Positions 4,085-46,188 of a DNA stretch of 64,000 nucleotides are shown in pieces; position 1 is the first letter of the stretch, and each line of letters starts with the position of its first letter. The notes under the pieces are model-generated. The model was not told the origin of the DNA, made no database searches, and was given only the letters and a program-made list of their open reading frames with translations. The stretch lies in assembly GCA_051883495.1 (NCBI GenBank), contig JBJETV010000017.1:28911-92910 (forward strand), written 5' to 3'. This DNA is from Christensenellales bacterium. GTDB lineage: Bacteria; Bacillota; Clostridia; Christensenellales; UBA1242. The position numbers and the translations under genes are program-made.

Positions 4085-4150
4085 ATGAAAAAGTTTTTTG
4101 TATTTATGTCAATATTGCTTCTTTCTTTGTCAGGAGTGTTTGTTGCATGT
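4085..4150 (+). other. Lipoprotein (SPase II) signal peptide of giant protein 1
   Basis: MKKFFVFMSILLLSLSGVFVA-C22-GGG: a basic N-region, a hydrophobic core and the lipobox FVAC (Cys codon at 4148-4150). Confidence 0.75.
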
Positions 4151-7100
4151 GGAGGAGGAAGATATGATGACCTGAACATTTCGGTCATCTCTGTTGTCAC
4201 GTCTGAGAACAAGAACGTGGAGTATAGCAGCAAGGACGGATGCTATATCCTAGAGCCTGGTGATAAGGTTACTATAAAAGCCAAGGCAACTTGTTCCAGT
4301 GATATTGCAGAAGACTTGCTGTTTGAAAACTATTCGCCAGCATCGCTTGTGCCAGATGAAAATGCAAATAGGAATGCAAAGACCTCTTACACTTTTGATG
4401 TTAATGCTCCAAGCGCAGGAGGAGTTTTCAAGATTGTAATTATGTCTCGTGAGTCAAGCAATGGGGCAAAGACTCTTTTGTTCAAGGCACAAGACACGCC
4501 TACTCAAATTGCCTTTAAGGATGGTGGTGTGGGTGCTGTATATGGCTCAGAAGTGAACCTTGCAAGTTGTGTAAACTTTTCTAGCAAGTTTAGCGAAAAA
4601 TTCCCAGAATATGAAGTTTCAGATAAAAGTTTGAGATATGAAGTTGTATCTACATTGAGAAATGATGATACTGAATACGAAATCTCGTATGACGAATTAA
4701 CTTCAACCTATTATGTGAAAATGGGTGATTTGGATATCGAGGCATTTAAGATTGAAAACGGTTTGCTTACTATTTTGGATAACAGAGTTTATGGAGAATT
4801 TGAAATAGTAGCAAAAGCCAGCAATTATATTGATAACCTTCCACCAACATCTTCTTCTGATAAGAAGACTGCCAACGAAAAACTGAAAACTCAAACAACC
4901 GTAAGTATTGTTGAACCTATTTCTCTTGAGAAGATAGAAATTAAGAGTGGAACAAGTGCAGGCCAAATAAACTTTACAAACATCCCACTTGAAACTAAAC
5001 TTTCTGCGTTGTTGTTGAACAATTTTTCGGGTGAATGGAAAGATAGCGATAATCAAGGGCATTTCTACAACTTGGAAAATGTTAATGTCTTATTGAGAAA
5101 TAGCGATGCAGACAAAATTGATATTACCGCATCACTTGAAGAGGGAACTAATATCGTTGCTGTTGATAGTAAAAATCCAGTAGAACTGACAAGTGAAGGG
5201 ACTGTAAGCGGAAAGAAAAGAGATTTTGCTTTTATGGCAAACGCATCTGCTGGCACTGCTGTAGTAGACTTCTTGTTTACATACAAATTTGGAAATAACT
5301 TAACAATAAAATTTTCTGACTTATATGAAGAATATTTTGAAAGTTTGTCGGAAGACGTAAAAAATCAATTATACAAACTTTATGGAGAGAGTTCTAGAAG
5401 TAAGTATGTTCAATTTGATGTGCAATCTATTCCAAATGGAGTAAGTGTTTATAGGGAAAACGATAGAAATCCTTTGGAACTAAATGAGACCGTTGCTGTT
5501 TTTGATAGTTATAGTGGCACTCGTGGAACAAGATTTGAAATAAATATTCCATTTGGCAAAGGAACAAGTGAAAATGATAAGAAAGTAAGGGTATATATCA
5601 ATTCTTCAGACAATGCAGATTCTTATCTAGAAGTAAGCGATTACAATGGAACTATAGCCCTGCAATCTGAAAATGTTGATGGACAAGTTGTCTATTTCTT
5701 TGAAAGAAATTTGGCTATAGAAACACACAATGTGTTTTATGTAAAGGCAAAACAAGGCACAGATTTTAATGGAAAAAGTTTTGAAATAACTGTTGAAAGC
5801 TTGATTGAATCAAAAATTACACTTTCTAATGGAACTATCATTGCTTCTGGATCAGAAAATGGTGATTTGAGAAATGAAACATTTACATTCAACATTGAAG
5901 CAAAGAAGGGTGTTAGCTCTATTGTAGCAAAAACAATGGTTGCGAGTGACAAATTCCCAACTATTGGAGAAGAAGGGGTTTATAGCAAAATTGTTCTGCA
6001 AAAGCAAAGTAATCCTTCTTCAGCCAAAGGAACATTGGTTGCATTTGCTATTGATGCAGACCCTAGCACTGCAATTACAGTGGGGTATGATTCAGATATC
6101 GTTAAGATAGATGTAGTTACTCTTGAAGCAGGAAGTTTGTTTGCGGGTAAATTTGCTGAAGGTCAAAATATTGCCGGAGTATTGTCTTTGGTTGGGCTAA
6201 AGAAAGGTGAAACAAAAATAACTCTCCAAGCGGACAATGGATACAAGGTTGTTTTGTCTGTGTTGGTTGTGGAAAGTTTTGCAGATGACTATGTATCACT
6301 GATTGTTGATGGTGACAATGCAATAGCCAACAACGACTTGGCAAATAGTAGAACTATCAGTGTTTTTGTAGGAGAACCTTTCGAGGTGTCTTATACAGTT
6401 GCATCTTCTCAAGATGCTGTAAGAGCAGTAAGATATTCTTCATCAAATGAACAAGTGGCAACAATAGCAGGGAATGGGAGAGTATCAACTCTTACCGCAG
6501 GGGAATCCATTGTAACTCTTGAAATAAAATTTTATGCTTTTTCTATAAATAATGGTTATGCGGTGTGGAATGAGAGGTCTTGCACTAGACAAGTAAAGAT
6601 TCGGGCGTTTATTCCAGCTGTTTCTAAAACATTGTCAAGAACAGAGATAAATGTATATGACTACAATTCGCTTGGTGGAGATATGCCAAGTTTTGATGTC
6701 CAAGGCAAAAAAGATTTGTCCAAGGTGTCGTTTAGCGTTGATTTAAGAGGTAAAGATGACCAAACACCAACAATTGCTGGGACAAATTGTATCACAGTAA
6801 AAATAGCCCCAGAAGATAGTAGATATATAGTTGGCACGCTTGAAGGCAATGTCTTTACAGGGTTTGCTTATTTGCCTGAAGGGATAAATTCTAAACATGT
6901 TAGAATAGAAGTGGTTATTGAAGAATATGGCACAGCTGTTTCAAAATATTGTGATGTGTATATCGAACGAGCGATAATGGTGGAAGATATTGGTGTTGCT
7001 GTTATGGAGAATGGTTCGGATATAGACGTTGAATATGTAGAAGATAAAACTGCAACATTGCTAACATCTACCAAGGCAGGCAAAACATTGACATTTGAAA

Positions 7101-10100
7101 CATCAATTTTGCCACAAGATGCTAGAGATAAATCTTTGGTGGTGGAGTTGTTCCGTTCAAACAACAATTATGACAAAAATCAGCCATTTACAAAAGTTAT
7201 GAACGAAGGGGTGTTGCCAGTTATTTCATATAAAGGCGAGCCTTCTTACGAAACTATTGTGCGTGCTGGAGAAAGTTTTGATGTTTATATAGATAGCAAC
7301 TGTTCGGGAGTATTTATTGTTTCCATTTCCAGTGCAGATAGTGTGCAAAGTGAAACACAGGTCGCAAATGGAGAAGACAATATATATTATGTAAGAAATT
7401 ACAATAAAACAATTGATATAGTTGTTAAGATCGAAGATGGCAGACTGGTTCCTTATGTTATCAAAAATTCTGAGGAATTGAGAGAACTGGAAAATTCAGA
7501 TAGAAACTTTGTCCTTGGAGCAGACATTTCTCTTGCCAATGAAAATTGGACCCCAATAAAGGGCTTTACTGGCTCTCTTAATGGTTATCTAAATGGCAAT
7601 TATTACAAAATTTCAGGCTTGAGCCTAAATAATGTTGACGAAGAGTATGTTGGCTTGTTTGCTACTCTTGACAACAGAACTGAAGGTGGAGAAACTGAAA
7701 GTGCCCCAGTGAGTAAATATTATGGTGCAATACTCAATGTTAAACTTGTTGTTTCTAAAATTGTGGTATCTCCAAATGATAAAACTAACATCTCTTTAGG
7801 TACATTGGTGGGCAAAAATAATGGTCTTATTGCAAACTGCTCGGTAGAATTGAATGGGGTAGATATCAAATCTACAAGTGCTATGAATATCGGTGGTTTG
7901 GTGGGCGAAAACAATGGACTTATTATATCTTGCGAAGAATCACTTGGAAAATCAAACGACGAATTGCAAAATGAACTGGATATGTTGAGTAGAGATACTC
8001 TAGCATACACTGCAGGAAGCACCAATGATTTTAATTCCCTTGCCGATTTTGAAAAACTTAATTTCGTTTCTGAAACAGTGGTTAAAGGTAATATGCAAAT
8101 TGAGGCTACTGGCGCTGTTAATGTTGGTGGTGTTGCAGGAAAGAACTCTGGCATTATAAACGGAATTTATGGAGTATTTGCTAAAAGAAATGAAATAGCA
8201 AGTATGACAGATAATGTATTTGCAGTGTCTTATCAAAGTGAAGGTGTAGATGCTGATGTAAATATAAATGTTGGTGGTGGCAATATTTCTAGCGAAAATG
8301 CAAACGTTGGTGGTGTTGTTGGTTATCAATATGGCGGGAACTTGTTCAACGTGTCTGCTGATGGGCAAATAGGTTATATTCAATCAAATAATGTATCTGG
8401 TGTTAATAAAAATGTCGGTGGCATTGCAGGCTATGTGGCAGGAAACGGCGAAAATACAAATATTTCTAATGCTCTTTCTTCTGTGAGAGTTTATGGAAAA
8501 GATTTTGTAGGTGGTGCAATAGGCAAGGCATATGATGCATTGCTAGACCTTATCCGTGTTGAGAATGCAACAGGAAATGTTGGTGCTTTGATTACAGCAA
8601 ACGGTGGCACAGTTGGTGGTGTAGTTGCTTATGCAAAAAATGTTGAAATTACACACAGTTATTCTCAAGGTTATGCTGACCAATATGACAGTGTGTATGT
8701 TGCAAATGGCGACTTGAAAATGCTTAACTCTTCAAATCTTGTTGGTGGAATTGTAGGCAAAACAGAGGGTTCTTGTGCTATAAAAAATAGCTTCTCTATG
8801 TTCAACTTTGTTGGTGCTGGTAATGCTGTGGGTATAGCAGAGAAAAGTGATGTTTGCCGAGTGGAAAATGTTTATTATATTGGCGTAGGGGCTAGCACAC
8901 TTTGTGGAACAAGCAAAACAGCAGAAGGCTTTAACTTCTTTGTAGAGTTGGAATATAGAGATATAGCAGAAGAAAAGGTTTTAACTGCAAAGTCTGTTGA
9001 CCTAACTGGATTGAATAATGAAAGTGATGCTATTTTCCTGTCTGGCAAAAAAATGAGAGTGGTTTACCCTTATGCAGGATCAGAAGGAAACCTTGACTTT
9101 GAATCTAAAATCTTGGCATATTCCAGTAATGTGGGAGTGTTTAGCCTTGCAAGGAATATTCCTACAAGCATTTCTACAACTGCAAATAGCAATTCTGGTG
9201 TGGCAACTTTGCACGAAACAAAGTGGAAATTGACATTCGATACCAACGAAGATAATTTTAGAAATGCAAAATTCTATGTTTTGAAAGATAATAACTACAA
9301 TGATGGCGAAATGGCTGTTGTGCTAAATCTTTCTAGTGAAGAAGAAAAAAATATCATTGCTATACAAGATTTGTTTGACATTTTGGCATTGCCAAGCGGA
9401 ATAAGTTATGCTCATCTTTTGGCTAGTTTGTCAAAAAGTGATATTGCAGAAGTAACTTCTGACGGCAATATTATTCTCAAAAACACAGGGAAAACTACTC
9501 TCAAACTGACCGTTAAGGAAAATAAAAAAGTTTGGTGTGAAGTTGACATATATGTGGTGAGAAACTTTGACAAGCTTGTGCTAAACTCGGGCATTGCATT
9601 GGCTCAAGATTATATTGGAAGAACTACAACTGTTGGAATAAAAACTGACATAAATATTATTGCTACATTGTGCGAATATACAAAGGAACAATCAGGTAGA
9701 GTAATATATGGCATTTTGAGTGATTCTCAATATGTGTTGTCCACCATTCCTGCTCAAGATGGTTATTCACTTAGGTTAGATGTTTTCGATGGTGAAGACA
9801 ACAGAGCAAAAGAATATCTTTCCACCAATTCAGAGTCGGAAAATGAAGATGCTGTGTTTGTTAGGTTGGCAAATGGTCTTAAGTTCTTGAAAGTAGGCGA
9901 ATGGACTGTAAAACCTATTATCGAATATTCAAAAGATGGAGTAGAATTTGAATACATTTGTGACGACTGGTCTTTTGTTTTGAACGCAATCTCTGGTGCA
10001 ACAAATATCACTACAAGGACAGAATCCAAAGAGATTACTCTATATGGTGAAACACGCAACGACAATCTAGCAGTGGTTGTTACGGCTGATACAGAAGAAG

Positions 10101-16100: not shown

Positions 16101-19100
16101 AGTTACTTAGAACAAATGCAACTACATTTGGCTCTTTGGCTGCAACTTCATCTAATACTATCATAAACATTGGATATGCTAGTGCTAATATTAATATTGC
16201 TGTTGATTACAGGACAAATGCAAGTTCACTATCTAGAACTATTGGTGGTATTACTGGTTCTGCCAAAGGGGATCTTCATAATATTGTTTCAAAGGTGAAT
16301 TTGAATGTTATTACAGGAGAGGATGAGAGAATAAGCTCCTTAAATATTGGTGGAGTGGCTGGCTCGATGATGGGCAGAATGAGAGATGTGTACGTAAGCG
16401 ACAGATCGATTGCAGTTGGGACGACTGAAAATCCAATAAGGACAATAGATAATACTAGTGGAATATACGTAGGTGGTATTATCGGCTCGGCAGATTCCTA
16501 TCTTGCCAATCAAGGGGATGAGGGCTCTCGAGTGGGCAGTGCAGAAGCAATTTTTGTTCAGGATATAAGTATAGAAGTAAATTCAATAGGCAATACATAT
16601 GTTGGTGGAGCTATTGCGTTAAGTACATTCAATATAACCAATGTAAATGTAAAACAATCAACTGGAGCCTTAGAAACAAATAAGATTAAGTTAAATTGTC
16701 TTACAGAAAATGAATCAACTGATGACCTTTATGTCGTTGGAGGTGTAATTGCTACAAGTTCAGCACAATATTTTAGTTATGTTTATAATAATATCCCTGT
16801 AGAATTTGTTGGTTCTTGCTTTAATACAGCGATTATTGGTGGAATTGCAGGCTATTTGACCAGCAAAACATCATATTCATTCGACAACATAGTGTGTGAT
16901 GCTACTAGTATAAAGGTCTTAAAAGGTAATCAAGATATTCCAGCAGGGGCGAGAATTTATGTTGGTGGAATTGCTGGCAAAACAGCAATGGACAACAATA
17001 ATACAATTTCTATAAATAAAGCAATATCCACAACAGATATAATCTGTGATCAGTATGCAATGATGAATGTTGGCGGATTTGTAGGCTCAGTGTCAAAACT
17101 AAAAGTGTCAACTGCTATTGTCTTGGGAGATATCACTCTAAACAGGGCTCTTGGATCTACGACAAATTTTGAAAGGATAACTTCCACACCAGCAAACGTG
17201 GCATCTATGTTCCTTCCTGATGGTGGCGACCCAACATATATTGGTGGTTTGGTTGGTGATTGTAAGAATTTGGACAATGGCGCTGACAATGGAAATGTGT
17301 TGGTTGCTTCTACAATAAGAGATTATGCAATTGCACAAAAGTTGAATGCTTATTTGGGGGCTGTGGTCGGCAGACAAGGAGGAAGTGATAAAGCTAGAGT
17401 TTCCAGTTCCTTAATTGTTACTTGTGAAAACATTGCATTGGTTGGCAACGAACTTTCGGGGATAAAAAATGTTGCTCAAGATACATTATCTGATGTAAAT
17501 GGTAATGGGGTGTTTGGGTTAATATACAACGATCTCTATCTAAAAGTTGACAGTTCTGTAAAGAGCAGATTCTTTACAAAGTATGCAGAAAGTCAGTCTG
17601 ATGGAACAATTAATGTTAGAGAAGGATGCAAACTTGCTCCAAAAACTTTTGACAATGATACAGTGCTTGAAAATAATAAATATTACATATTAGAAAATAA
17701 TGTAACTGTTGATGACACAATAACCACAACTGCAAATGGTTGGGTTATCAACGGTCAAGGATATTCCATACAAGTTGGCACAGATAGTAGTAAGATGAAA
17801 ACTGTGTTTGGTGAGATAACACAAAGATCAGCAGTTTCGGCTGTTATGCTCAACCTATCTGGCACTGTAACAACAAACAGTAAGGAATTGTTTGCTCCAT
17901 TTGCAACATACAACTACGGATTTGTCTTTTCTTGCTTTGTTGTAGGAGATGTGGTAACTGGTCTTGATTCATCTACATTTGTTTATTCCAATTTTGGGGT
18001 AATTAACAAGTGCTTTAGCATGGCAAATCTCAAAACTAATGGTGGTGGCGGACTTGTTTCAGCGAATGGTAACTATATTTCTGATAGTGAAATATATATA
18101 GGAAATATTTACGACAGCTACTATACAGGATCTATTACTATTGATGGTAGTAATGATAGCAATACTGCTATAGGAACTTTGGCAAAGGATACAACTTATG
18201 GTGTAATATCAAACTCTTACACAATGGCTGACGTCTCCGCAGATTTTGGGACTAACAAATATAATGCAACTCATCCTGTAGCATCAATAAGAACTTCGTT
18301 GGAGCATTCATGGAATCCTACAGAAAACTTGTATAGAGTTTACTATGACTACATTCCATATGTTGCTGGCAATGAAGGTCAAAATATGTCCGCCATTGGA
18401 GATAGAACAAACAACCTGAACTTTATTTCAAAAGAAGGTTTCTATTTGTGGACATCTTCCTTTACAGGAGAGGTAAACAATGTGTTCCAAACAGCAAATA
18501 CTAGCAATGCAACAGTTGCAGAAATGTTCCAAACTCATTGGGTTGTCCCAGAAAGAAATAAAACTACTGGCGAATTGACCGGTGAACTGGTGGAAATATT
18601 TAACAAAGCAGAGGGGGCAGTAACATCAGAAGGCGCTATTGGAATAGATTCTACTTGGTTCAACTTTGGATACATAACCAAAAACTACTCTAACATATTT
18701 GATGGAGTAGGTGGCTCAGATGTAGGAAAATTTGCAAGTCGTATTAGAAATTATTTCAATTCTATATACACAGGCAATGGTCTTGCCGACAAAAATGGCA
18801 ATTCTTATGCACCTGATGTTGTAGAAAGTTTGGCTATAAATGGGATAGGTCCTGTTTCTAATGGAATAGTTCAAGGTTTTACAAATATGCCTTATTCCAT
18901 AAAACATGCTGGTTTGCTTGATATATTTGTATCTTCAAACAATGCAGGCACAGTGCCAAAGTATAGATATTATAGATTCACAAAGGAAATTGTTAACTTT
19001 GAAAAGTATTCCAAGGTAACATATTGGTCAGAAAGTTGGGATACTCAAAGTATGGAGTTCTATGGCAATCTTGACGGGGCTTTGACGACAGAAAAAACAA

Positions 19101-37900: not shown

Positions 37901-40900
37901 GTGGTGTTATTTCAGATTGCTACTCTAATATTTGGCTAACTTCTTCTGGTGCGATTGCAGGATTTGTTTATGAAGACACAGCACAAAGTGTAATATCTAG
38001 ATGTTATTCCATCAGTTACAAAAAAGCAGGGGACAACAACACAATGGCCTATCCTTTTGCAGGGCCAAGGACATTGGTTTCTACAGAAGTGTGCATAAAT
38101 GGTGTGCTAAACGATTGTTTCTTCTTAAATGACAAAACAAAAAATGATAAATGGGAAAACACCAATTTCTACACTCCAGGAAGCAATGATCCATCAAAAA
38201 CTCCAGCAAACAAAAAGGCTGTGGAACTTTCAATATCCAACTTTGCTACTCATACATATTTCACCAATTACGACTTGTCATTGGTCTATTATAGTGATAA
38301 GTATGCCAACGAAGAAAGTTATAACTATGTTGATGGTTACACTTGGGCAATTATCGAAGGAAAACCAGTCATTGCATCAACTCTTGTAAGGACAATTTCG
38401 CAAAGAGATTATTTGGGCAAGAAGAAAAAGTATAAAGAATCAAGAGAAATGTTTGCGGTGGACACGTCTTCTAGCGATCTAAAAAGCACAGTGAGAGCAG
38501 AGGACAAGTCGATAACAGATTACACTAGCGCTTCGACAGGTAAATTGTTGTTCTCAACAAGGAAATATGCTGATAATAGTAAGATAGAGTTTATATACAA
38601 TGCAACAGAAAATTTTGAAAGCCTTGTGATAACCTACGAAATAACCAACATAGAGGGCAAGCAGTCTTATGTCAATCCAGTTGCTGAATATGGCGAAAGC
38701 AAGCGAGTGCTGGATGTTCAGGAAAACAGCATCGATAGCGAACAAGCCAAAGACAACAACTTCCGAGCCAATGACACAATAGTTGTGGTGCTTGACTTGG
38801 ATAGGAACTTGATTTCCAACATAACCTACTATGTTCTTGACGAGAAAAATATAACATATTATTACAAAGGCAATGACCTTGCCATTTCAAAAGGAAGCGG
38901 AGATAGAAGCAATCCAATAACAATTTACGACAAAGACTCCCTAGTATATGCCTTTACAAACAGTGTGGGTGGAGAGGCCGATTTGAGCAAGTATTTTAGA
39001 ATTGTTAGTGATATCGACCTAGATGGCGACTTCCTTGCAACTAGCAAGGCAAACTTCACTGGAGTTTTGCAAGGCAATCATATGACCATTAGCAACCTTT
39101 CGATGTCCTATGACAGATGGTCTTCTGACCAAGTGGATAGAGAGTCGTTTGGAATGTTTGCAAAGATTACTGCCGGAACGAGAAAGGATACAATTATTTC
39201 TAACCTTAAAATTGGTGTCTTGCAAATTGCGTCCAATGTTCACACTTATGTGGGTGGTTTGGCAGGACAAATCGTTGGAAGTTTGGAGCAAACGGCAAAC
39301 AAGGTGCTATTAAACAATGTTTCAGTGGTCAGAACTTCTACAAACAATGCCCCAGTGCAGGGTAGGAATATAGTTGGCGGATTGACTGGGCTTGTCCGTG
39401 GCAATGTCATATTGAAAGATATCGTAACAGATGTATCGGTAGTGTCTACATATGATGCTTCTTCTACATCACTTTATATCAACCCAACAGTCAAGAATAA
39501 TTGCAATGCCTGCTCTTATGTTGGTGGTGTAGTTGGTGTGTTTGATGCCACTCCAGTAGTGGACAATGCAACCAAGAAAAATTACAATGCCAGCAACATT
39601 TCAGTTTTGGCAGGAAATATGTATTATGGCGGAATAGTTGGCACTGCATTTGGTTTGTTGGGAAAAGATACTATAGCCAATTATGTCAATGTTCAAGTGG
39701 AGACTTCAAGTGACAGTTTTATCAAATCAAAGTCTTATGCAGGCGGAATAGTTGGCGAAAATAGAGGCACTTTGCTCAGTTCTTCAGCAAAAAATATTGA
39801 AGAAAGTGAAAGCACCGTTTCTATTGGTTCATCCAGTCTAGTAGAATATAGTTACTTCTTTAATGGAGATGGAACACAAACACTTGCAATAGGTGGCTTG
39901 GTAGGACTAAACAATGGTGGGCTTATATCCAATGCCCTCAGTGCCATTGATGTAAGGAGTTCTCGAACGGTTATTGCTGGTGGTGCAGTCGGCAGACAAC
40001 TGTCTGGCGGTATAGAAAATGTTATTGCCAGTGGTTCGGTGTTTGCAGACAAGATTATTGGTGGACTGATTGGAACAATAAATGACAAAAATATTATGAC
40101 CTCTCAAGGAGGATTTTCTGACGAAGAAGATGCAGATGCTTGCCTTATGGAAGCAGACAGCAGTCATCTTTCTCTAACAGGATATAGCATAGCGGAAGAT
40201 AGTTATGTTCTGTGCCGAATATCAAATTCTGTGGCAGAAAACAACTGGCTTTATGATGATTACTCTAGATATATCCAAAAAATAAACTCCAGCACAAGAT
40301 GTGCGATAGGTGGCTTTATTGGACTTATCGCAACGGAAGATGATGTAGAGGAAAGTAGGGTAAATGCTACTTGGCAAGACAAGGTAATATTTGACGGCAA
40401 GAGTGCTTATGTAGGCAAAATTTCAGACGGAGTGAACTCTAGACATATCAAATCTGTGTATGTTGACGGCACTTTTGATTATCCAAAAAATATTTCTGAC
40501 GAGAGTTATGAGTTCCCTCGCACAAACGATGGCGAACAAGCATTATTCCCATATTCATTGCAAGAATTGTTGACCAGCGCACAGACTTCAGACCTTTCTT
40601 ACTCTGTGGAAAAAATTCCATTTACAGCATACAGCGACCAATCTAGTATTGGTGACGAATATATTAGCACTATACTCAAAATTTCAAACAACCCAGGATC
40701 TATTAAGCAGCTTAATAATGAAGAAGGTTTTTATAAAGAGATAAAGGTTGTAAAGATAAATGGTCCAAAACCAACAGACACCAGTTCTTTTGAAGATGGT
40801 GTATGGTATGTTGATGACAGTTCTGGTAATGTAGATTTTGATTGGCTTGCAAAGCATTTTGGAATAGTATATTTCAGGAAAAATGATGATAGTCGTTTTG

Positions 40901-43900
40901 AAGAAGTTGTTAATTATACGAACCTTAACAATGAAGAGGTTAAGAGAAGTTTTAATGAAGTTTATTGTAATGAGGAGAGCGATGATTCTTCATTGACTGG
41001 GGCAAAGTGGTTAAACTTCTACAAACAGGAAGAATCAAATAAGGAATATGGCAAATTCTATTACATTGCAAATTCCACTTTATCTACTATACGATTTGAT
41101 AGAACGTACACTTATAAGTCAGATGGCAAAGTTCAAAATGAAATCGCATTGATTGGTGCTTCTACTGATAATAGAGGGGATGGAATAAATAGTTTTAAGC
41201 ATATAGAAAACTTATTCTATCAAAGCACATTTGTTCTTAATGGAGTGTGCATATTCGACTTTGATATAAACAAATCCATTTCAGAGGGGTCAACAGGCTT
41301 TGAGAATTTGTGGAGTAGTGTTGAAGGAGAAGGAAATCTTTACACACTAAACCTAGACAATTGCAAACCTGCTGGGGCAGGAGATGATTGGATTTGGTCA
41401 GTTGACTTGCCAGATGGTGGAACAATAGTTGACATAAAGATAAGAGTCGAAAGTTCTGGTGACGAATATTATGTGTCAGAGGTTATACTGTCTTATGAAT
41501 ACAATGGTGTGGTTTTGGAAAGTGAAACATCAAATTCTGCATTTATAAAAGAAACAAAAGATTCAAACAATCCACTTTTATCTAGTTATTCATTCATTTC
41601 TTCTGCCAAAAAGACTTCTTTTAGGTCTTTTAGTTCGGAATATTGGATTATTGGAGAAGATTTCTATTCGCAATCTGTTTCGTTTGAAAGCAAATATCCA
41701 AAAAATATAGAATTTGCAGAAACTTATGTGTGGGAAGACTTTAGGACAAAAAATGTCACAGGAAGAATAACAGAAATAAATACTGCAGAGGACTTGGCGC
41801 TATTTGCTTACTTGGTCAACAGTGGAACGGATTATACAAGGATTGAAGTAAAGCTAAAAGCAAATATTGACCTTAGCGGGAAATATTGGGTGCCAATAGG
41901 CAAAGATGAAGCGCATGCTTTTAATGGGACATTTACTGGCAATGGATATACAATAAAATATGTTTCTGTAGATGAAAACTCCTTGGCAAAAACTGATGAG
42001 GATAGAGTTGTTTATGCAGGAATATTTGGTTATGTAAAAAATGCAACAATTACTGGGCTTACTCTCATAGGGGGAAAGATTAGTGGCGAAACTGCTGGTG
42101 GATTAGTGGGTTATGCAGATAATGTACAATTCAACGCATTAGTCAATCGTAACAATGTTATGGGAGATAGTTATGTTGGTGGATTGGTAGGTTATGCAAA
42201 AGATTGTAGTTTTGAAAATTGCACCAACTATGCAGAAGTCAAAAACACAAACAACTATAATTCAACAAATGTGTATGTTGGTGGAATTGCTGGTAAAATG
42301 GATAATGGCAATTTGAAAACATCAGACACACGAAATGACAAAGGCATACAGAATTATGGAGTTGTATATGCTCAAGAAAGTCATAATAACCATTTCGGCG
42401 GGACTGAACATTTAGTTAATGTATGGCTTGGTGGACTTGTAGGAAGTGCAGGAAGTGTAGAAGGTATAACTATCAATACAAAACTTAGTAACTTTGGCAA
42501 GATAAATGCCAATTCCAATGCAACAGAGTTGCGTTGTGGTGGACTGTTTGGTTATTTGGAGTCAAACTCGTGTTCATCATTGTTCAACAAGGGAATTATC
42601 AAAGTAGCCAATTTCAACCGCAATACAACAGACGAAAGGTCTAAAATGTATGTAGGCGGAGTGTGTGGACAGGCAGAATGTGATATGTCTATTATGGCAA
42701 ATGAGCAAGATATAACTGTAACTTGCGACTTGGCAAGCAATATAAACTCCAATATAGGAGGAATTGTTGGTGCTCTTGCTGGCAATATTAACCAAAGTTA
42801 CAATGCAAAGAATATCTCTTATGTGTCAAAAGATAGCGATATTGCATATGTTGGTGGATTGATAGGGTTGTCGTGTATATCTGGCCATACATACAATGAA
42901 ATTGTTAATTGTTACAATGCTGGCAAGATAACAACCACTTGTGGTGGCGTTGGCAGTGTAGCAGGCATAGTTGGGTTGGCTGAAGAAAATTGTGGATTGA
43001 TTGTTCAAAATACCCTTTCAATAGGTCAAATATTGGCACAAAACGGAAGGGTTGCAAGCAATGTTGGGGCAATAACAAACTTTACAGAAGGATTGATGCT
43101 GGACCCTAGCGAATATCCAGATGAAGATGTAGAACTAGCAACCTTTGCAAACTTCTACCTTAGAGGTGTAGCGGTAGTTGGCTCGGTCAATGCTACTGCA
43201 GTTGGTGGTGGTGAAGTTGATGAAAGTGGTTTTGCTCAAAGCAAAATAGCCAAAACGTTAAAAGATGCAGAGACTTATGAAAGTGAAGGGAAACCACTTT
43301 GGAATTTCAGCGTAGAAGAAGGTGGAATTTGGGAATGGAAATATTCTACATGGTTCCCAACACTTAAGAAAAATTCACCAAACACACTTTGGACAGATAG
43401 CATAGAGAATATGGTTCAAGTGGGTGGAGATTATGTTATAGACACTGCAGAACAACTCGCCAATCTTGCCTATTTGGTCAATTCTGGAATGATAGACACC
43501 AAAGGGAAAGTATTCAGGTTGAGAGATGCTATAGATTTGTCCAACAAATTGTGGATTCCTATCGGAAATGAAGAATTTGCATTTGAGGGGACATTTGAAG
43601 GTGGCGGATATTCCATTTTCAACATGACGGTGGACGGCAGTGCAGTGGAAAAGAGTGGAATAGACAAACTAAACTATGGCGGATTGTTTGGCGTAGTAAA
43701 AAATGCAAAGATTGCAAACATCGGCATTATGTCGCCAATAGTGAGAAATGTTAATTATGCAACAAGTGTTGCTGTTAAAGCAACCAATTCATTGATAACC
43801 AATGTCTATACAGAAAAAGACGGTTCAAATACTTGTAAAATTGTTGGAGATATAAAAGCAGGCGGATTGGTTTGCGAACTAATAAACAGCAAAGACCAAT

Positions 43901-46188
43901 CTAATACAAAATTGGGATTGCATAAGAGTTATAACAATGTTCCTGTAGAAGCCAATACAGGTATTGTCGAAAAGATTCAAACTGTTGGAGCATTGGTGGC
44001 AACTCTAACTAGTTCATCAATAACCAACTGCTATAATGGTGAAAATGGTTCAGTAACTATTGCTGGCTCTGGGATTAGTGAATCAATTATGGTTGTGGGT
44101 AGTATAGGTTCAAGCAGTGAAGAGAGTATCTTGACAAATGTATTCAACTTGTGTACCAATGCAGATGGAAGTGTATCTTCCACCCCTGCAATTTATGAAA
44201 TTGCAGATAATGTGGTTAAAAAAGTTGATGGAGAAAATAGTAGCCCAATATTTGATAATCTTCAAGAAACTTCCACCGATGGAAGAAAATCTAGTGTTTG
44301 GGCAAAAGAATATTCTCTAAATTCAACAAAAGACGCATCTGGCAATCTCTATCCATCACTAAGAGGTGTTGGGCTGGAGTGGAAAAATACCGAATGTGAT
44401 ACACTGTTGTCATTTGATACAAATTCACTTTATAAAGGTGAAATAAGAAGTCTATTTGAGGGAAGTTCCATTATGTTTGCAGATGAAGTTTTGGGAGAGC
44501 AGGAACTTTCTAGCAAAGATTCCAGCATAAATAGAGTTTATCTTATCCAAACAGCACAAGAACTTGCTTGGCTTTCCTTGGCGGTAAACAGTGGAATGCT
44601 TACTTCGCATTGTGAATTTATCCTTATGGCAGATATCGACCTTGCGGGAAGATTCTTTACTCCAATAGGGTCAAGTCAACAAAATGCTTTTTGTGGTGTA
44701 TTCAACTTTAATGGGCATACGATAAAGAACTTGACCATAGACAGTCTAAACTATACACATTCAGGGTTGTTTGCCATCACTCAAAATGCTTATATAATCA
44801 ATGGATATATCAAAGACGCATTTATTAAAGTAGAAAACTCTAGTGTAACAACCAATCTTTATGCAGGAACTCTTGTGGGATTGGCATACAACACAACTAT
44901 CAAAAATATCACTGTTTCTACAGCAATGCTGATAAAAGGCGCAGGAAGAGTGTATGTTGGTGGCTTGGCAGGTCATGTGTCTGGAAGTATTCAATATGAA
45001 ATACAAAATGTTATGGCTATGCCTTCAAACAAAGAAGAATCGATTGGCGGACAAAATCATATAGACTTGACTGATTATCATACAAGGATATATGAGGAAG
45101 ACATAGATTCTTCCACTGCTTCAAAACTTAAAGATGTGTCCATAAATATTGGAGCAATAAGCCTTTCGGAAAGGGTTTTTGCAGGTGGTTTGATAGGGCT
45201 TGTTCATAATTATGACAGCACTGCAACTTCCGCAGGTATGACTTATTGCACCAATATGAACAATGTTGTTGCAATGTCAGTGGGCAATCAGCCAGCCAAT
45301 GTTTATGGTGGCGGTGTGGTAGGATACTTGGACAATCAAATGGTTATCGAAGCCTGCTACAACACTGGAAGCATCAAAACCAGTTCTACATTGTTTGATG
45401 CGGTGGGGGGCATTGTAGGTTACACTTACTATGGCACATTGCGAAATTGTCTTTCTACTGGTTATGTGGAGAGTTGCCTGAACTCTGCTATCAAGGGAGA
45501 GTCTTCCAGTGGAAGTATTTTCTCCTACATCGGAGGGATTGTTGGTATTGCAGTTGGAGGAACGATAACCAATACAATTTCACAATCAACAACATATCAG
45601 GATGTGCTGACAGGCAAAAACATTGCTGTTGGCGGTGTAGTTGGATATATGATGGGAAAAAATGATTTTACTTCAGACATAAATGTTTTGTTTGAAGGGG
45701 TAGGAAACTTTGGCTCAATCAATTCTGGCGTTGGTTTGTCGCAACCAATAGTAAATAGTTCATATAATATGGGACTTGATGGAAAATTCAATATCGATGA
45801 CAAGGTGTCCAATGGGTTTGTTTCATCATACTGGGCAGGCAGTGCTTCTGCTCCAATCCTTAAAGCGCAAAAAGCATATGTTGCATTGACCAGTGATTAC
45901 AATCTATCCGTTACTCTCAAAAACAAGACTCTTAACACCGAAAGCAGTCTTACTTACGAAAGACAGGGAAATAATCTTCGTGGGCTTCTCGCAAGTAGAA
46001 GTGATGAATTCGAATTGGTCTTTGCAAAAGATGAAGAAGTCAAAAAGATTTGCTTATCTGTGCTAGATACCAGTGGAGTAGTAACAAATGTGGAGGTAGA
46101 TGTAACCTTTACAGGTGAACAATTCGTATTAAGCCTTAATGATTACATAGCCAATGCAGTTAGCATATTTGTAAGGATAAAAAAATAA
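28855..46188 (+). CDS. Giant surface lipoprotein (5777 aa) with Ig-like regions and at least six GLUG-type beta-helix cassettes; paralog of giant protein 1
   Basis: Uninterrupted 17,334-nt ORF. RBS GAGGA lies 7 nt before the ATG. Lipobox signal. Repeated cap + GG[LIV]xG cassettes. An intrinsic terminator follows at 46196-46229. Confidence 0.9.
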   Translation: MKKIFSKIMVLLLIVSSLVIFGCNERYGDLKMSLNFCFSSFSSKTLNDGTRRWTNNTDNSVVDEMLDGSYTLYISGSTQTTAYIDATFSGVPEDFNSDVQVSLSNSILTVGKKQYIDGGMRVSICAKQEGSTTLTVLSSEGSKQRSLMIQVVEVPSVLRFRQGNVALSYKRGTTYNISSGLENNLSLRNMTFDLGTLSGAGETNIEKFVPFSSLQLASKNISLVESQILLLEDYDLTDDEVIYARATYKNPLGEDLVQIQQIEFLPQISNFEIYSFDSTKDNGLGQKVGGSEEDLLSTIDFVTNIAITHKDFVLKTNTYGKKINIIGIQDSLCPFSIFVQPNYENMGFAFGGDSLRVRYFNADGEITTAENIGRATYGLSYIRLVPSKIKSTEGSASYPDGTYNMNFECSYVDYPQEEFLSVATLNTRCYTVVNNYSVNGNILQNNNILTDFDEEKCYSTEVMTNFDASLGVKLSVEVGDPLNVLKSRSVFGLTFYRRADGSSTISRLNESEVLNIFQIFVNDEDHLLDANFSNQQFPAGTDFYFKIKQSGEIFVGDDIFVQITSIEDDSQAECVAKLSLVQGIREITGFEVVFRSREIDEATGDYIIFDTQNISFESNKATLDLDLSKDYIAIISLQYSPIEATLSNIYVSSLVDNVVLATVKNGNIILDPKSVGRNISVSLGASNLRQVYSLNVNVYYPVLSMEAEIVDISSNSSIGDYSIGTRNVYAKVKTKEQVEFMLTTRPYDANRYNLTYAVYNITSGSSVQVKNSYTIYYDGSVAGANKIYDEYFELNCTANAFRFTNDSAEGKTYVVEIVLENLDGTVLTWTFTLFAFVPVEEMDINLSRAEVVNPKTVAYETKLESGITFDTQNPPDNVFGFNVTVNKTSSRVPTNTFEEEATVTISIGGRTDGIYQVSGGVMSKISEGESVVRLLYPGVFGGKYWFELQDNVDSSYTTIQIGVRVNEYRNYHYATKNISIVNHEQVTEIYTNAQTTLKLRDTDILDDISFSLEIGNEKASNKTLLVQNLSIVEVGGNTMYLIAGEGAMSASIQNQTNMHSTLSLLPTGKAGKSILVVMPQDKIVTREQYETFCGTMTSISLTLEDFVDGMFYEKVSDAYEIAHEYQSGKQYYAKVVNYAELIKIWKGALTIQIDIENGEDVPYSISSMQDLLGIAQNPTKNYILANNIRFDNSKTFSPISSYYPVELTEDEFNKGIYYSKNNADQYILQTTYSNTQTYYAYGFGGSLVGKNKVQDRKTGESYYEYYSIENVYLPAQINQSRYGLFEVLYGTVSDVTIKYAFAQPTINVSTTFGGIAGVNFGRISNCTAQYTGAIFRAEEQIVFGGVAGVNFGEIEQNTQQESRLNRGDVEIIAKGENTLLAGGIVGFNFGDLSGSYSRQKGGEVSFGNSAYDSSLNIKVSITETSNSLNQFNIYSIPSALVTLFENYLISPDVDRGGAFLIPQNYAHLEQNYNDDTSTTTSDGLMCGIGGVVGINIGKVHNISVQSVVDAQDCDFVGGIVGLALSSELYNSKIGEVSYKFDDNKYSIYCSYSSSKVTGNHYVGGAVGGARGILTESNTDIPVAMYDVGAENYVNDEHSRNFVVGKGEVGGFAGRLVCVVAHYLSTTSYYDEYSSQGADWLGKEENYDIMATATLTSNFELRSVNDGLAGGFAGCGESVRYYACGANVNVWAPNTKAGYIFAFTSNMDVYFAENIFGKGVVYSNNNTNKLLGVNSFGSKNTISYSKITDVKNIISGRNGTIYSINGSEKTETEFTTLINSIFNENRDYLPWKVEKDTAGKIAGLPMLYITYKVDLSGVEVVKSEPLFVLGPVVITATVKDNLDSDEGWKFVKLDDKTIMLFFALSESDLISTESLLRLNTTSLLDLLNISVSPSGVKSNKLKVQSNSDLLEISGENIIIKSIGREGSSAVTLTVSSNLSSTNPENNAKIDVILCYGLTDVNVYANTSFTMPLNEDYGIDLLLSQTQTVYANPEYIVNVDNEDVSLRAMENVGLRFEVLAEDVNVILDSLNGTASGIGNIFTIASKQWTPVNSGGKVEKYYVNVDSTFASFVPLIAIPDGGKLAIECIPYIYQTINGERKTALLQEHSTHFYLSITHGATAISLLDNMQPNFVMNQLQKLAFTITMDTDSIDDRIILDNAIELGKELGINIGEYQYEFVDETGKIQIVGSSDVRGKTGLRKISQSYTVWFKDKLSGIKEDKNYIFNFHSNINTTIALPVAIKIIGENEVKSVYTNVYASYDDFPQKSSGGYIYSGLNDTPAVLGVEVYPYVTNYSHVRLSYTSTSGDLLFITPVILDLNNEHGKQFVDNGSVAVYSSNGKTLTINKSIGQDTFLSNNSGVYSYARSYFFKLFTDSHVKDGTEFVVKIDILNEAGAVILSKSEVISTLKKPGITFALDNDLLGNDGKYYVPINTKNELIVDTINYNDEIKWELSAVDVYGNAYSGFSDYKEGLEPKKEGSKYYIQLLNFEEGIWWSTDLVGKTITLRGEITSNKQTYSYEIQIVVTMFTVKEITVDKVENGSINIPVATTYPLRVNIEAFYDDNIKNSGSWYEEWYNNIYLNNKTDDSLYINIIKAGYQVKRYFVDYINELADNIAKATFSSSSSDSKVSGVWQYNAQENLISGSKYNDETFGVETFNDFFALYGLKTDKQSNILFDAKIAYTANKTSTTERASGIPNVKDYSTIDGKKEFKQAFVVTFVYPNELKNAIPVSTAEEFLSMKEGGDYRLVNDIVLSNYRPLTTNIASFDGNNKVIFITGFSYDYSTTGDVNLGLFEKIEKEVEVGGVAKQVLIENVTVYYTPSVTQQSLAGTVVIEPSLESLRINLPNASSVTFGGLTCSNAGVIANANILGGVRIEVNSSDVAGASGSASSNIGGLVANNEKSGYISNSTVGAKLFRKKTTSDEVEKVYDGFNIYCYGNAGGVVCTNRGKIVASYFESGSIEHNSKQEGVGGFVCSNYGEILESYVQGRRAESDKDIRNTGSGMVSRAGIVGGFVYYNSGVISDCYSNIWLTSSGAIAGFVYEDTAQSVISRCYSISYKKAGDNNTMAYPFAGPRTLVSTEVCINGVLNDCFFLNDKTKNDKWENTNFYTPGSNDPSKTPANKKAVELSISNFATHTYFTNYDLSLVYYSDKYANEESYNYVDGYTWAIIEGKPVIASTLVRTISQRDYLGKKKKYKESREMFAVDTSSSDLKSTVRAEDKSITDYTSASTGKLLFSTRKYADNSKIEFIYNATENFESLVITYEITNIEGKQSYVNPVAEYGESKRVLDVQENSIDSEQAKDNNFRANDTIVVVLDLDRNLISNITYYVLDEKNITYYYKGNDLAISKGSGDRSNPITIYDKDSLVYAFTNSVGGEADLSKYFRIVSDIDLDGDFLATSKANFTGVLQGNHMTISNLSMSYDRWSSDQVDRESFGMFAKITAGTRKDTIISNLKIGVLQIASNVHTYVGGLAGQIVGSLEQTANKVLLNNVSVVRTSTNNAPVQGRNIVGGLTGLVRGNVILKDIVTDVSVVSTYDASSTSLYINPTVKNNCNACSYVGGVVGVFDATPVVDNATKKNYNASNISVLAGNMYYGGIVGTAFGLLGKDTIANYVNVQVETSSDSFIKSKSYAGGIVGENRGTLLSSSAKNIEESESTVSIGSSSLVEYSYFFNGDGTQTLAIGGLVGLNNGGLISNALSAIDVRSSRTVIAGGAVGRQLSGGIENVIASGSVFADKIIGGLIGTINDKNIMTSQGGFSDEEDADACLMEADSSHLSLTGYSIAEDSYVLCRISNSVAENNWLYDDYSRYIQKINSSTRCAIGGFIGLIATEDDVEESRVNATWQDKVIFDGKSAYVGKISDGVNSRHIKSVYVDGTFDYPKNISDESYEFPRTNDGEQALFPYSLQELLTSAQTSDLSYSVEKIPFTAYSDQSSIGDEYISTILKISNNPGSIKQLNNEEGFYKEIKVVKINGPKPTDTSSFEDGVWYVDDSSGNVDFDWLAKHFGIVYFRKNDDSRFEEVVNYTNLNNEEVKRSFNEVYCNEESDDSSLTGAKWLNFYKQEESNKEYGKFYYIANSTLSTIRFDRTYTYKSDGKVQNEIALIGASTDNRGDGINSFKHIENLFYQSTFVLNGVCIFDFDINKSISEGSTGFENLWSSVEGEGNLYTLNLDNCKPAGAGDDWIWSVDLPDGGTIVDIKIRVESSGDEYYVSEVILSYEYNGVVLESETSNSAFIKETKDSNNPLLSSYSFISSAKKTSFRSFSSEYWIIGEDFYSQSVSFESKYPKNIEFAETYVWEDFRTKNVTGRITEINTAEDLALFAYLVNSGTDYTRIEVKLKANIDLSGKYWVPIGKDEAHAFNGTFTGNGYTIKYVSVDENSLAKTDEDRVVYAGIFGYVKNATITGLTLIGGKISGETAGGLVGYADNVQFNALVNRNNVMGDSYVGGLVGYAKDCSFENCTNYAEVKNTNNYNSTNVYVGGIAGKMDNGNLKTSDTRNDKGIQNYGVVYAQESHNNHFGGTEHLVNVWLGGLVGSAGSVEGITINTKLSNFGKINANSNATELRCGGLFGYLESNSCSSLFNKGIIKVANFNRNTTDERSKMYVGGVCGQAECDMSIMANEQDITVTCDLASNINSNIGGIVGALAGNINQSYNAKNISYVSKDSDIAYVGGLIGLSCISGHTYNEIVNCYNAGKITTTCGGVGSVAGIVGLAEENCGLIVQNTLSIGQILAQNGRVASNVGAITNFTEGLMLDPSEYPDEDVELATFANFYLRGVAVVGSVNATAVGGGEVDESGFAQSKIAKTLKDAETYESEGKPLWNFSVEEGGIWEWKYSTWFPTLKKNSPNTLWTDSIENMVQVGGDYVIDTAEQLANLAYLVNSGMIDTKGKVFRLRDAIDLSNKLWIPIGNEEFAFEGTFEGGGYSIFNMTVDGSAVEKSGIDKLNYGGLFGVVKNAKIANIGIMSPIVRNVNYATSVAVKATNSLITNVYTEKDGSNTCKIVGDIKAGGLVCELINSKDQSNTKLGLHKSYNNVPVEANTGIVEKIQTVGALVATLTSSSITNCYNGENGSVTIAGSGISESIMVVGSIGSSSEESILTNVFNLCTNADGSVSSTPAIYEIADNVVKKVDGENSSPIFDNLQETSTDGRKSSVWAKEYSLNSTKDASGNLYPSLRGVGLEWKNTECDTLLSFDTNSLYKGEIRSLFEGSSIMFADEVLGEQELSSKDSSINRVYLIQTAQELAWLSLAVNSGMLTSHCEFILMADIDLAGRFFTPIGSSQQNAFCGVFNFNGHTIKNLTIDSLNYTHSGLFAITQNAYIINGYIKDAFIKVENSSVTTNLYAGTLVGLAYNTTIKNITVSTAMLIKGAGRVYVGGLAGHVSGSIQYEIQNVMAMPSNKEESIGGQNHIDLTDYHTRIYEEDIDSSTASKLKDVSINIGAISLSERVFAGGLIGLVHNYDSTATSAGMTYCTNMNNVVAMSVGNQPANVYGGGVVGYLDNQMVIEACYNTGSIKTSSTLFDAVGGIVGYTYYGTLRNCLSTGYVESCLNSAIKGESSSGSIFSYIGGIVGIAVGGTITNTISQSTTYQDVLTGKNIAVGGVVGYMMGKNDFTSDINVLFEGVGNFGSINSGVGLSQPIVNSSYNMGLDGKFNIDDKVSNGFVSSYWAGSASAPILKAQKAYVALTSDYNLSVTLKNKTLNTESSLTYERQGNNLRGLLASRSDEFELVFAKDEEVKKICLSVLDTSGVVTNVEVDVTFTGEQFVLSLNDYIANAVSIFVRIKK
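32341..34280 (+). other. GLUG-type cassette A of giant protein 2 (approximate bounds)
   Basis: Cap YSISSMQDLLGIAQNPTKNYILANNIRFDN. Turns FGGIAGVNFGRISNC, FGGVAGVNFGEIEQN, AGGIVGFNFGDLSG, IGGVVGINIGKVHN, VGGIVGLALS and VGGAVGGARG. C-cap YLPWKVEKDTAGKIAGLPMLY. Confidence 0.55.
37030..38390 (+). other. Beta-helix cassette B of giant protein 2 (GFV variant), collinear with 11858-13330
   Basis: IPVSTAEEFLSMKEGGDYRLVNDIVLSNYRPLTTNIASFDGNNKVIFITGFSY ... VTFGGLTCSNAGVIANANI ... GGFVYYNSGVISDCYSNIWL ... NDCFFLNDKT ... GYTWAIIEGKPVIASTL. Confidence 0.6.
38908..40440 (+). other. GLUG-type cassette C of giant protein 2 (approximate bounds)
   Basis: Cap SNPITIYDKDSLVYAFTNSVGGEADLSKYFRIVSDIDLDGDFLATSKANFTGVLQGNHMTISNLSM. 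Turns VGGLAGQIVG, VGGLTGLVRG, VGGVVGVFDA, YGGIVGTAFG, AGGIVGENRG, IGGLVGLNNG, AGGAVGRQLSG, IGGLIGTIND and IGGFIGLIAT. Confidence 0.55.
41761..43370 (+). other. GLUG-type cassette D of giant protein 2
   Basis: Canonical cap ITEINTAEDLALFAYLVNSGTDYTRIEVKLKANIDLSGKYWVPIGKDEAHAFNGTFTGNGYTIKYVSV. Turns AGGLVGYADN, VGGLVGYAKD, VGGIAGKMDNG, LGGLVGSAGS, CGGLFGYLES, VGGVCGQAEC, IGGIVGALAG and VGGLIGLSC. C-cap IWEWKYSTWFPTLKK. Confidence 0.65.
43432..44380 (+). other. GLUG-type cassette E of giant protein 2
   Basis: Cap VIDTAEQLANLAYLVNSGMIDTKGKVFRLRDAIDLSNKLWIPIGNEEFAFEGTFEGGGYSIFNMTV, then YGGLFGVVKNAKIANIG and AGGLVCELIN. C-cap SVWAKEYSL...GNLYPSLRG. Confidence 0.6.
44533..45870 (+). other. GLUG-type cassette F of giant protein 2
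   Basis: Cap RVYLIQTAQELAWLSLAVNSGMLTSHCEFILMADIDLAGRFFTPIGSSQQNAFCGVFNFNGHTIKNLTI. Turns VGGLAGHVSG, AGGLIGLVHN, GGGVVGYLDN, VGGIVGYTYYG, IGGIVGIAVGG and VGGVVGYMMG. C-cap SSYWAGSASAPIL. Confidence 0.65.

Follow-up and report, generated by a model that had tools for sequence, protein, structure and literature searches.

Christensenellales are gut bacteria, mostly uncultured. In one of them (Christensenellales bacterium, assembly GCA_051883495.1), a conserved pair of genes for predicted surface proteins fills 42 kb beside the RNA polymerase genes. The window analysed here is a stretch of 64,000 nucleotides (contig JBJETV010000017.1, positions 28,911 to 92,910). Giant gene A is an open reading frame (ORF) of 24,315 nt for 8104 amino acids (aa) at 4085..28399, and giant gene B an ORF of 17,334 nt for 5777 aa at 28855..46188. 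Both are on the + strand, as are the features of the two genes given below; neither contains an internal stop, 455 bp separate them, and together they make up 65% of the window. These coordinates and sizes agree exactly with the initial annotation, made by a model from the sequence alone, whose remark that a protein of over 8000 aa stands at the extreme end of bacterial protein sizes was overstated. Predicted bacterial proteins of up to 85,804 aa have been reported (bioRxiv 10.1101/2023.11.21.568195), so that 8104 aa is very large but not extreme. We propose that A and B are, with fair probability, N-terminally lipid-anchored long fibres serving adhesion and/or forming a surface coat.

A and B are real genes under purifying selection along their whole length. 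Relatives were collected by scanning one genome per species with a motif from the only region common to A and B. The scan recovered 22 related loci, L001-L022, all from uncultured Christensenellales/Clostridia genome bins, and relatives of the source bacterium include animal-gut genomes. Mapping of orthologs across related genomes had been suggested as a check, and the reading frame was open through 22/22 loci. L001-L012 are A orthologs, and three full-length distant A orthologs (P0001-P0003; 7689, 7760 and 7808 aa) were found by exhaustive search. Complete B orthologs of 5781-5812 aa are present at L013, L014, L015 and L020, and at L014, L015 and L020 the last 530-552 aa of an A ortholog lie in frame just upstream of them. 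In two bins the tandem A and B orthologs are on one contig (JBNMHO010000001, DLSM01000001). L016-L022 form a third clade, as far from A as from B, that has only the central module in common with them. The gene orders M23-ACP-SpoIIID-A and B-rpoB recur in other species, and the A/B pair is retained down to ~30% identity. All source names recovered for the relatives read 'hypothetical protein', and no paper was found in the literature on giant, GLUG or lipoprotein genes in Christensenellales.

The ratio of nonsynonymous to synonymous substitution rates (dN/dS) was 0.13 for A against L001 and 0.11 for B against L013. Corresponding values were 0.024 for rpoB (against L013), and 0.094 for ACP and 0.063 for SpoIIID (both against L001). 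Every 500-codon window of A and B gave a dN/dS of 0.06-0.22, well outside what chance would produce; the two are thus under ordinary purifying selection and are real coding genes. Both are most conserved at about residues 2000-3500. The C-terminus evolves fastest, with an identity of 32-35% vs 65-72% at the N-terminus in the same genome pairs, and the C-terminal ends of the orthologs are colinear and homologous between species and are not swapped cassettes.

The Logan short-read assembly of run SRR30616840 carries identical DNA. In it B is identical and called as 5777 aa, and A is called to residue 7444, where the contig ends at window position ~26416; the contigs break at ~26,416 and in the tandem array between A and B. 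A break inside A and another at the array are what an assembly artefact or a decaying pseudogene could leave behind, but either explanation is hardly credible, given a dN/dS of 0.06-0.22 in all windows, a length and frame that are alike in many independent genome bins, and the identity of B in the second assembly. Repeat collapse is implausible because the DNA is nearly repeat-free: apart from the intergenic array and one 20-mer, the window has no exact repeat of at least 20 bp, and BLASTP at 1e-5 gave no self-matches within A or B. The sole exact 20-mer shared by A and B is at 16958-16977 and 42274-42293. The break at ~26416 is at a site without a repeat; low coverage may have caused it, or variation between strains in this fast-evolving C-terminal part.

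The locus had been described as not an obvious recent island. This holds, because synteny is conserved and composition is native, the GC content being 0.374 for A and 0.373 for B vs 0.34-0.43 in the flanking genes. The absence of tRNAs near the genes was likewise borne out, since the window contains no tRNA; it contains no Rfam family either. Codon adaptation of A and B is intermediate (A 0.535, B 0.50; ordinary genes 0.42-0.49, rpoBC 0.57-0.60) and leaves their expression level unsettled.

Lipoprotein signal peptides consist of a basic n-region, a hydrophobic h-region and a lipobox, [LIVMFWSTAG]2-[LIVMFYSTAGCQ]-[AGS]-C, within the first ~35 residues (PROSITE PS51257-type). Both N-termini are basic, then hydrophobic, and then carry a lipobox, the residues ahead of the cysteine being MKKFFVFMSILLLSLSGVFVA in A and MKKIFSKIMVLLLIVSSLVIFG in B. 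The predicted signal peptide II of A (4085..4150) ends in ..GVFVA before Cys22 and that of B (28855-28923) in ..LVIFG before Cys23; each is the only hydrophobic segment of its protein. Lipobox signals had been noted on both proteins at the outset; they fit the pattern, and the cysteine is kept in 29/29 relatives, in 28 by regular expression and in L021 (..GILAA before the cysteine) by eye. A motif, C-x2-3-[RK]Y-x-[DN]-[LM], is conserved after the lipobox. By signal peptide and lipobox, A and B are classed as lipoproteins, and their lipidation is predicted. The initial statement that LPXTG and HEXXH are missing was also correct: a search for LP.T[GAN] in A and B found nothing, there is no C-terminal hydrophobic segment, and neither protein contains HEXXH. 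The RTX motif GG.G.D is absent from both as well.

Known families account for little of either protein. An hmmscan of both had been advised, and Pfam gave only GLUG motifs and one Big_2 domain just under its cut-off (gathering scores, 20.5 bits for GLUG PF07581 and 22.8 bits for Big_2 PF02368). GLUG was missed when the proteins were scanned in chunks of 3,000-4,500 aa and was found with chunks of 400-900 aa. The motif scored 32.7 bits (~aa 1405-1429) and 33.0 bits (~aa 7800) in A, and 24.6, 32.3, 36.7 and 40.7 bits in B. Among the module copies from the window and its relatives, 16/43 match GLUG and 1/43 Peptidase_M26_N; the matches to the latter, in one module copy and one A chunk, are all under the Pfam cut-off, and the M26_C catalytic domain has no match in A or B. 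SLH and CWB2 wall-binding domains were not found in Pfam scans of A and B. The NCBIfam scan of both proteins gave zero matches. PDB sequence searches were equally empty, both for chunks of A and B and for two profiles, one of the beta-helix module and one of A 1620-2587. Neither A 1-1200 nor an alignment of A 1620-2587 from 11 orthologs had a match in a word-indexed protein search, a result taken to reflect the sensitivity limit of the index and not absence, because exhaustive search finds orthologs.

The modular architecture was delineated with an iterated hidden Markov model (HMM) seeded from the shared region A 2587-3006. The model detects at least five capped beta-helix modules in A, starting at residues 1123, 2588, 3120, 3781 and 4520, and six in B, starting at 1162, 2724, 3353, 4305, 4859 and 5228. 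Rung-only matches extend across A 5313-7887.

In A, the signal peptide is followed by a putative N-terminal stalk (aa 23-1122; 4151..7450). Its candidate Big_2 Ig-like domain at aa 757-811 (nt 6353-6517) scored 22.3 bits vs the 22.8 cut-off in A itself and is matched in 7/11 orthologs (best E 7.3e-9). An ortholog profile searched against PDB retrieved Big_2-like Ig domains, with 9ifo at 5e-6. The first GLUG beta-helix module (aa 1123-1616; 7451..8932) was recognised by the iterated HMM and by Pfam GLUG. Next to it, aa 1621-2590 (8945..11854) are predicted to form an Ig/cadherin-like beta-sandwich array without a sequence-level family. Among 1.84 billion representative proteins this segment has 10 matches, all of them giant orthologs or their fragments; the A/B family is rare. 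Its AlphaFold2 model (predicted local distance difference test score, pLDDT, 71; predicted template modelling score, pTM, 0.44) is all-beta with long strands, and Foldseek matched it to NUP210 (2e-17), protocadherins, the S-layer assembly domains of Sap, EA1 and SbsC, and a mastigoneme protein.

The core of A (aa 2587-3600; 11843..14884) is its most conserved part and the sole part common to A, B and the third clade. AlphaFold2 predicts it with pLDDT 74 and pTM 0.85 as nearly all short strands, arranged as right-handed parallel beta-helices with a short beta-stranded linker. The top Foldseek probabilities, 0.97-0.99, were obtained with the beta-helices of IgA1 proteases (7uvl, 7uvk, 6xjb). Other matches were PL6 and pectate lyases, fucoidan lyase, phage tailspikes, Ag43 and the adhesin PfbA, and the PDB matches listed, as well as the named viral-library matches, are all beta-helix proteins. 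Two further modules, 3781-4327 and 4520-4873, lie within aa 3781-4873 (15425..18703) and were assigned by the iterated HMM from the N-terminal cap. A long C-terminal region (aa 5313-7887; 20021..27745) is rich in GLUG rungs and has insertions; it was defined by the HMM, a dense xGG[IV][IVA]G pattern and Pfam GLUG.

B has a first beta-helix module at aa 1162-1642 (32338..33780), found by the HMM. Its conserved core modules (aa 2724-3892; 37024..40530) are the counterpart of A 2587-3600, supported by BLASTP against A (31% identity, E 4e-36), a module alignment, the HMM and the GLUG match of 24.6 bits. Three canonical GLUG beta-helix modules follow at aa 4305-5578 (41767..45588), namely 4305-4698, 4859-5205 and 5228-5578, by the HMM and with GLUG at 32.3, 36.7 and 40.7 bits. 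With GLUG above the Pfam cut-off and a right-handed parallel beta-helix predicted, A and B are assigned to the GLUG-motif group. The layout of a lipid anchor, an Ig-like stalk, and alternating GLUG beta-helix rods and beta-sandwich strings thus appears to be common to A and B, and A is predicted to carry an additional, very long, rung-rich C-terminal third. Both fold classes are predicted structures, one segment of A having been modelled for each.

These features suggest how the two proteins may be built and displayed. A and B would be ancient paralogs, exported through Sec and acylated at the conserved cysteine (+1 after the signal peptide), so that the N-terminus is tethered to the outer face of the cytoplasmic membrane. 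From there the chain would run outward as a mostly rigid, non-repetitive fibre in which Ig/cadherin-like bead strings alternate with right-handed GLUG-type beta-helix rods, at least five capped modules and a ~2,600-residue rung-rich tail in A and six modules in B. If each sandwich of ~100 aa adds ~4 nm and each rung of a beta-helix 0.48 nm, an extended fibre is estimated at roughly 150-200 nm and would project far past the wall. The conserved central beta-helix pair may be the invariant working or assembly module. Because it evolves fastest, the C-terminal end is taken to be the distal, exposed and variable tip. Such fibres would most likely bind glycans, material from a host or adjacent cells, or clothe the cell in a permanent coat of fibrils, or both.

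As a function, adhesion or a fibrillar coat demands the fewest assumptions, because no catalytic, toxin, sortase, SLH or RTX feature was found. It is also favoured because GLUG proteins, in gut archaea, are treated as adhesin-like (PMC9723798) and because the closest solved beta-helix, that of IgA1 protease, serves binding and gating and has no catalytic role (PMC7695701). The lipid-anchored Ig/beta-helix fibre of the initial annotation has thus gained in substance through the lipobox, the modelled sandwiches and beta-helices and the GLUG motifs; its adhesin or coat role, like export, acylation and extension, is what we infer.

Several points weigh against lipid-anchored adhesive or coat fibres. 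No known ligand-binding domain was identified in A or B. The modelled part comprises ~2,000 of 13,881 residues, both segments being in A, with moderate confidence (pLDDT 71-74) and from shallow alignments, of 8 and 19 sequences. Beta-helix folds are just as characteristic of enzymes that cleave glycans, and the predicted Ig arrays are as similar to S-layer assembly domains as to adhesins. The overall dN/dS of ~0.12 is ordinary and gives no signal of host-driven diversification. To our knowledge, no monoderm protein of 8,000 residues tethered as a lipoprotein has been characterised before.

Coat, lyase, toxin and sporulation functions were weighed as rivals, and each is less well supported than an adhesive/coat fibre. 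A constitutive S-layer-like or sheath-like lateral layer, giving protection, cell shape or a barrier and not adhesion, would suit the match of the Ig-array model to the assembly domains of Sap and EA1 (B. anthracis) and SbsC. The conserved consensus sigma-A promoter of A, its core neighbourhood beside rpoBC, the retention of the pair across deep divergence and the ordinary dN/dS would suit it too. Such a structural coat is nevertheless unlikely, in that Pfam scans found no SLH, CWB2 or other wall-binding domains and the cadherin, NUP210 and S-layer matches simply reflect beta-sandwich strings. Moreover, S-layer proteins are typically 40-200 kDa and not 600-900 kDa, and a fast-evolving C-terminus is more typical of exposed tips. 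Somewhat less probable still is a tethered glycan-processing fibre, in which some beta-helix modules would be active lyases or hydrolases (tailspike or PL6/PL1/PL3-like) held on a long stalk for foraging on or remodelling glycans of host or microbial origin. By E-value the top Foldseek match of the core is a two-domain PL6 alginate lyase (7o7t, 3.8e-4), followed by fucoidan lyase, chondroitinase B, pectate lyases, polygalacturonases and phage depolymerase tailspikes, and in each of the three clades conservation is highest in the central beta-helix. However, the Foldseek probability was 0.08-0.35 for the lyases vs 0.97-0.99 for the IgA1 protease beta-helix, a non-catalytic gate (PMC7695701). 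No lyase or hydrolase family was matched in the Pfam, NCBIfam and PDB sequence searches, and the near-invariant positions given by the module alignments are Asn, Gly and hydrophobic, with no conserved acidic/basic catalytic set standing out.

The divergence of the C-terminal ends, which differ between orthologs and change fastest, would be expected of a fibre that delivers a toxin or acts as a contact-dependent weapon through a variable C-terminal effector, resembling polymorphic toxins, and the distant ortholog P0002 ends in a Cys/His segment that looks NlpC/P60-like by eye. Against such a fibre, no toxin or peptidase family was found in the C-termini of A, B, P0001, P0002 and P0003 at E <= 1. 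There is no small immunity-like gene downstream, A being followed by B and B by rpoB, and the C-termini are the colinear, homologous ends described above. Toxin delivery is therefore highly improbable. Little more can be said for a sporulation-specific product such as a spore coat, exosporium or engulfment protein, which is a very unlikely function. SpoIIID (Pfam 4.2e-29) and an M23 peptidase are encoded immediately upstream, and SpoIIID adjoins the giant gene even in the third clade, there on the opposite strand. Adjacency alone is weak evidence, however; the A promoter, conserved in those A-type loci that were examined, matches the vegetative sigma-A consensus perfectly, and the predicted lipoprotein anchor would place the protein at the membrane of the cell that makes it.

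Among described systems, the nearest by kind is the Giant1-5 cluster of Apilactobacillus kunkeei (PMC12863079). Its consecutive same-strand genes encode extracellular proteins of 3,000-8,000 aa with beta-solenoid and beta-sheet (Ig-like) domains, predicted to be elongated to ~0.2 um and proposed to act in adhesion/aggregation (PMC12863079). A and B are similarly tandem same-strand giants of a Firmicute with predicted beta-solenoid and Ig-like parts and a proposed role in adhesion/aggregation. They differ in that Giant1-5 have Sec/SPI signals, C-terminal SH3b-like DUF5776 anchors, a single N-terminal SRRP-like beta-solenoid and long series of recognisable repeats, which in Giant1-3 are alpha-helical. 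A and B instead carry lipoboxes and many GLUG beta-helices, lack DUF5776 and show no internal repeat by BLASTP. In sequence they are unrelated to Giant1-5, and their last 450 aa contain no Pfam domain but GLUG. With the M26 IgA1 metalloproteases (6xjb, 7uvk, 7uvl) A and B share GLUG above the cut-off and the predicted beta-helix match of 0.97-0.99, but they are without HEXXH, the M26 catalytic domain, G5 and LPXTG. Moreover, the beta-helix of IgA1 protease is a single small gating domain (PMC7695701), whereas A/B have about a dozen modules, in a scaffold of 8,000 aa.

The beta-sandwich chain of A 1621-2590 resembles Sap, EA1 and SbsC, with Foldseek E of 1e-11 to 1e-7 against their assembly domains. 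A/B differ from these S-layer proteins in having no SLH, in being 5-10 times larger and in their predicted lipid anchor; the similarity is generic to beta-sandwich strings, and cadherins and NUP210 score as well or better. Giant adhesins of the Ebh, SiiE, LapA/MpIBP and Bap type are very long extracellular rods, mainly of Ig-like beta-sandwiches, and are highly repetitive. They are anchored by LPXTG/sortase, by a C-terminal transmembrane segment or by type I secretion system retention modules with RTX repeats. Compared with these fibrillar adhesins, A and B have no LPXTG, RTX motifs or repeats and a putative N-terminal lipid anchor. Halomucin, reportedly of ~9,000 aa, is said to have been proposed as a cell-coating protein. 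In Haloquadratum a coding sequence with a GLUG motif lies in a region compared with an archaeal halomucin homolog, GLUG being named in a figure legend only (PMC4330952). The halomucin-like proteins are archaeal, and their likeness to A/B is the shared name of the GLUG motif alone. A and B are not M26 proteases, LPXTG adhesins, S-layer proteins, RTX adhesins or polymorphic toxins, because the defining feature of each class was looked for and is missing. Among giant fibrillar surface proteins they are set apart by lipoprotein anchoring as predicted, by the absence of sequence repeats over ~14,000 residues, and by a promoter and a place in the core genome that are deeply conserved.

The A/B family is a concrete candidate for attachment to hosts, food particles or partner microbes, and it would extend lipoprotein anchoring to proteins of ~900 kDa. 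The two are unusual among giant proteins in that they are not built of recent repeats: their beads and rods have diverged past BLAST recognition, yet are under purifying selection. This combination makes A/B a useful case for work on the origin and long-term maintenance of giant proteins. The conserved central beta-helix (A 2587-3006) lends itself to expression, to the solving of its structure and to screening against glycans or ligands. Rather doubtful is the further-reaching idea that A/B and the third clade constitute an ancient, obligatory envelope organelle of the lineage, a lipid-anchored, non-repetitive fibrillar layer hundreds of nm deep, its genes lying beside rpoBC under a consensus promoter. 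If true, it would define an undescribed monoderm surface architecture that could underlie cell-cell aggregation or partner attachment; floc formation of Christensenella with methanogens is reported (bioRxiv 10.1101/872333).

Upstream of A lies a promoter, TTGACA-18 nt-TATAAT (3990..4019), that matches the consensus at 12/12 positions. TTGACA and a TATAAT-like -10 at a similar distance were seen by eye in the A-type loci L001, L002, L004, L006, L008, L009, L010 and L012, and also upstream in the third-clade loci L016 and L019. The A-type promoter, 5' untranslated region (5'UTR) and ribosome-binding region are kept even in orthologs at ~30% protein identity, with a common 5'UTR end, ..ACATAATAAGGxTAGGTG..ATG. 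After the A stop, a stable terminator-like hairpin is predicted by folding at 28505..28555, with the core GGGGGCTTTGCCCCC at 28525 (z-score -3.8; 0/200 shuffles fold as well). A hairpin followed by a T-run is found at the same place in L014, L015 and L020; a simple terminator scan did not call it in the window. Between A and B there follows, at 28552..28698, a 12-bp tandem array of TTTTACAACAAG x6.7 and then degenerate TTACAAAAAAAA. The array is longer and has different units in L013, consists of AAAAATGCAC x7 in L020 and is missing in L014; it may tune B transcription or curve the DNA. Before B, a candidate extended -10, TGCTATAAT (28730-28738), is identical in L013, and the -35 is poor. A sigma-A-like promoter had been claimed initially for each gene; the claim is solid for A, with its perfect consensus, and weaker for B because B has an extended -10 only and a poor -35. 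Going by these elements, A is probably transcribed strongly and on its own, from its conserved consensus sigma-A promoter to the hairpin. B would probably form a separate transcript, from a less certain, weaker promoter preceded by the hypervariable tandem array.

The region upstream of the A promoter has further features. A weaker periodic array of 13-bp A-tracts (CAAAAAATTTGT x4.6) at 3901-3954, just upstream of the promoter, may be an UP-element-like or regulator-binding region, and TTGCAA/TTACAA-type words recur upstream of both giant genes. About 110 bp upstream of the promoter is an inverted pair of perfect DnaA boxes, TTATCCACA at 3851-3859 (+) and TGTGGATAA at 3873-3881 (-). A closely similar pair occupies the same place in L001, L002 (one box off by 1-2 bases) and L004, and L008 has two direct TGTGGATAA. 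The whole window contains 42 DnaA boxes with at most one mismatch vs 25.7 expected, a count that 0/100 shuffles reach. The GC skew keeps its sign throughout the window, so that an oriC is not obvious here; a promoter regulated by DnaA or a cluster of DnaA boxes could account for the pair.

Encoded on the 5' side of A are an LPG-synthase-type membrane protein, an M23 peptidase, ACP and SpoIIID (the last assigned by Pfam at 4.2e-29). The M23 peptidase has an N-terminal membrane segment and may be a SpoIIQ-like protein; at 2317-3671 the ACP gene is flanked by the M23 and SpoIIID genes. In each of the three clades a SpoIIID gene is the neighbour of the giant gene; in L016-L019 it is encoded on the opposite strand. 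The retention of these sporulation genes is notable, since descriptions of cultured Christensenella give them as non-sporulating. The last ~130 residues of the distant A ortholog P0002 (7760 aa) follow a Gly/Ser-rich linker and contain a Cys...His segment (..SDCCGFIRL..NGHAVIYLY..). An NlpC/P60 assignment of this segment was rejected since there is no Pfam match at E <= 1; it is absent from A and B, the orthologs carrying different C-terminal ends.

On the 3' side of B are rpoB, rpoC, rpsL, rpsG, fusA, tuf and the genes for an AI-2E transporter and a class I Trp/Tyr-type tRNA synthetase. The usual order in Firmicutes is rplJ-rplL and then rpoB; here rpoB comes after the giant genes (46189-46688) and not after rplJ-rplL. 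Upstream of the tRNA synthetase gene (62153-63139), a degenerate 16-bp tandem array (TATTATAGTTGATTAA x8) lies at 61961-62088, where no T-box or other Rfam family was detected. The rpoC-rpsL spacer (54042-55700, 1.66 kb) contains two ORFs without a family assignment, at 54322-54696 and 54956-55267, the latter with a weak match to a PHD_like antitoxin (0.005). Two tandem arrays accompany them, at 54038-54111 (25 bp x3) and 54776-54834 (27 bp x2.2).

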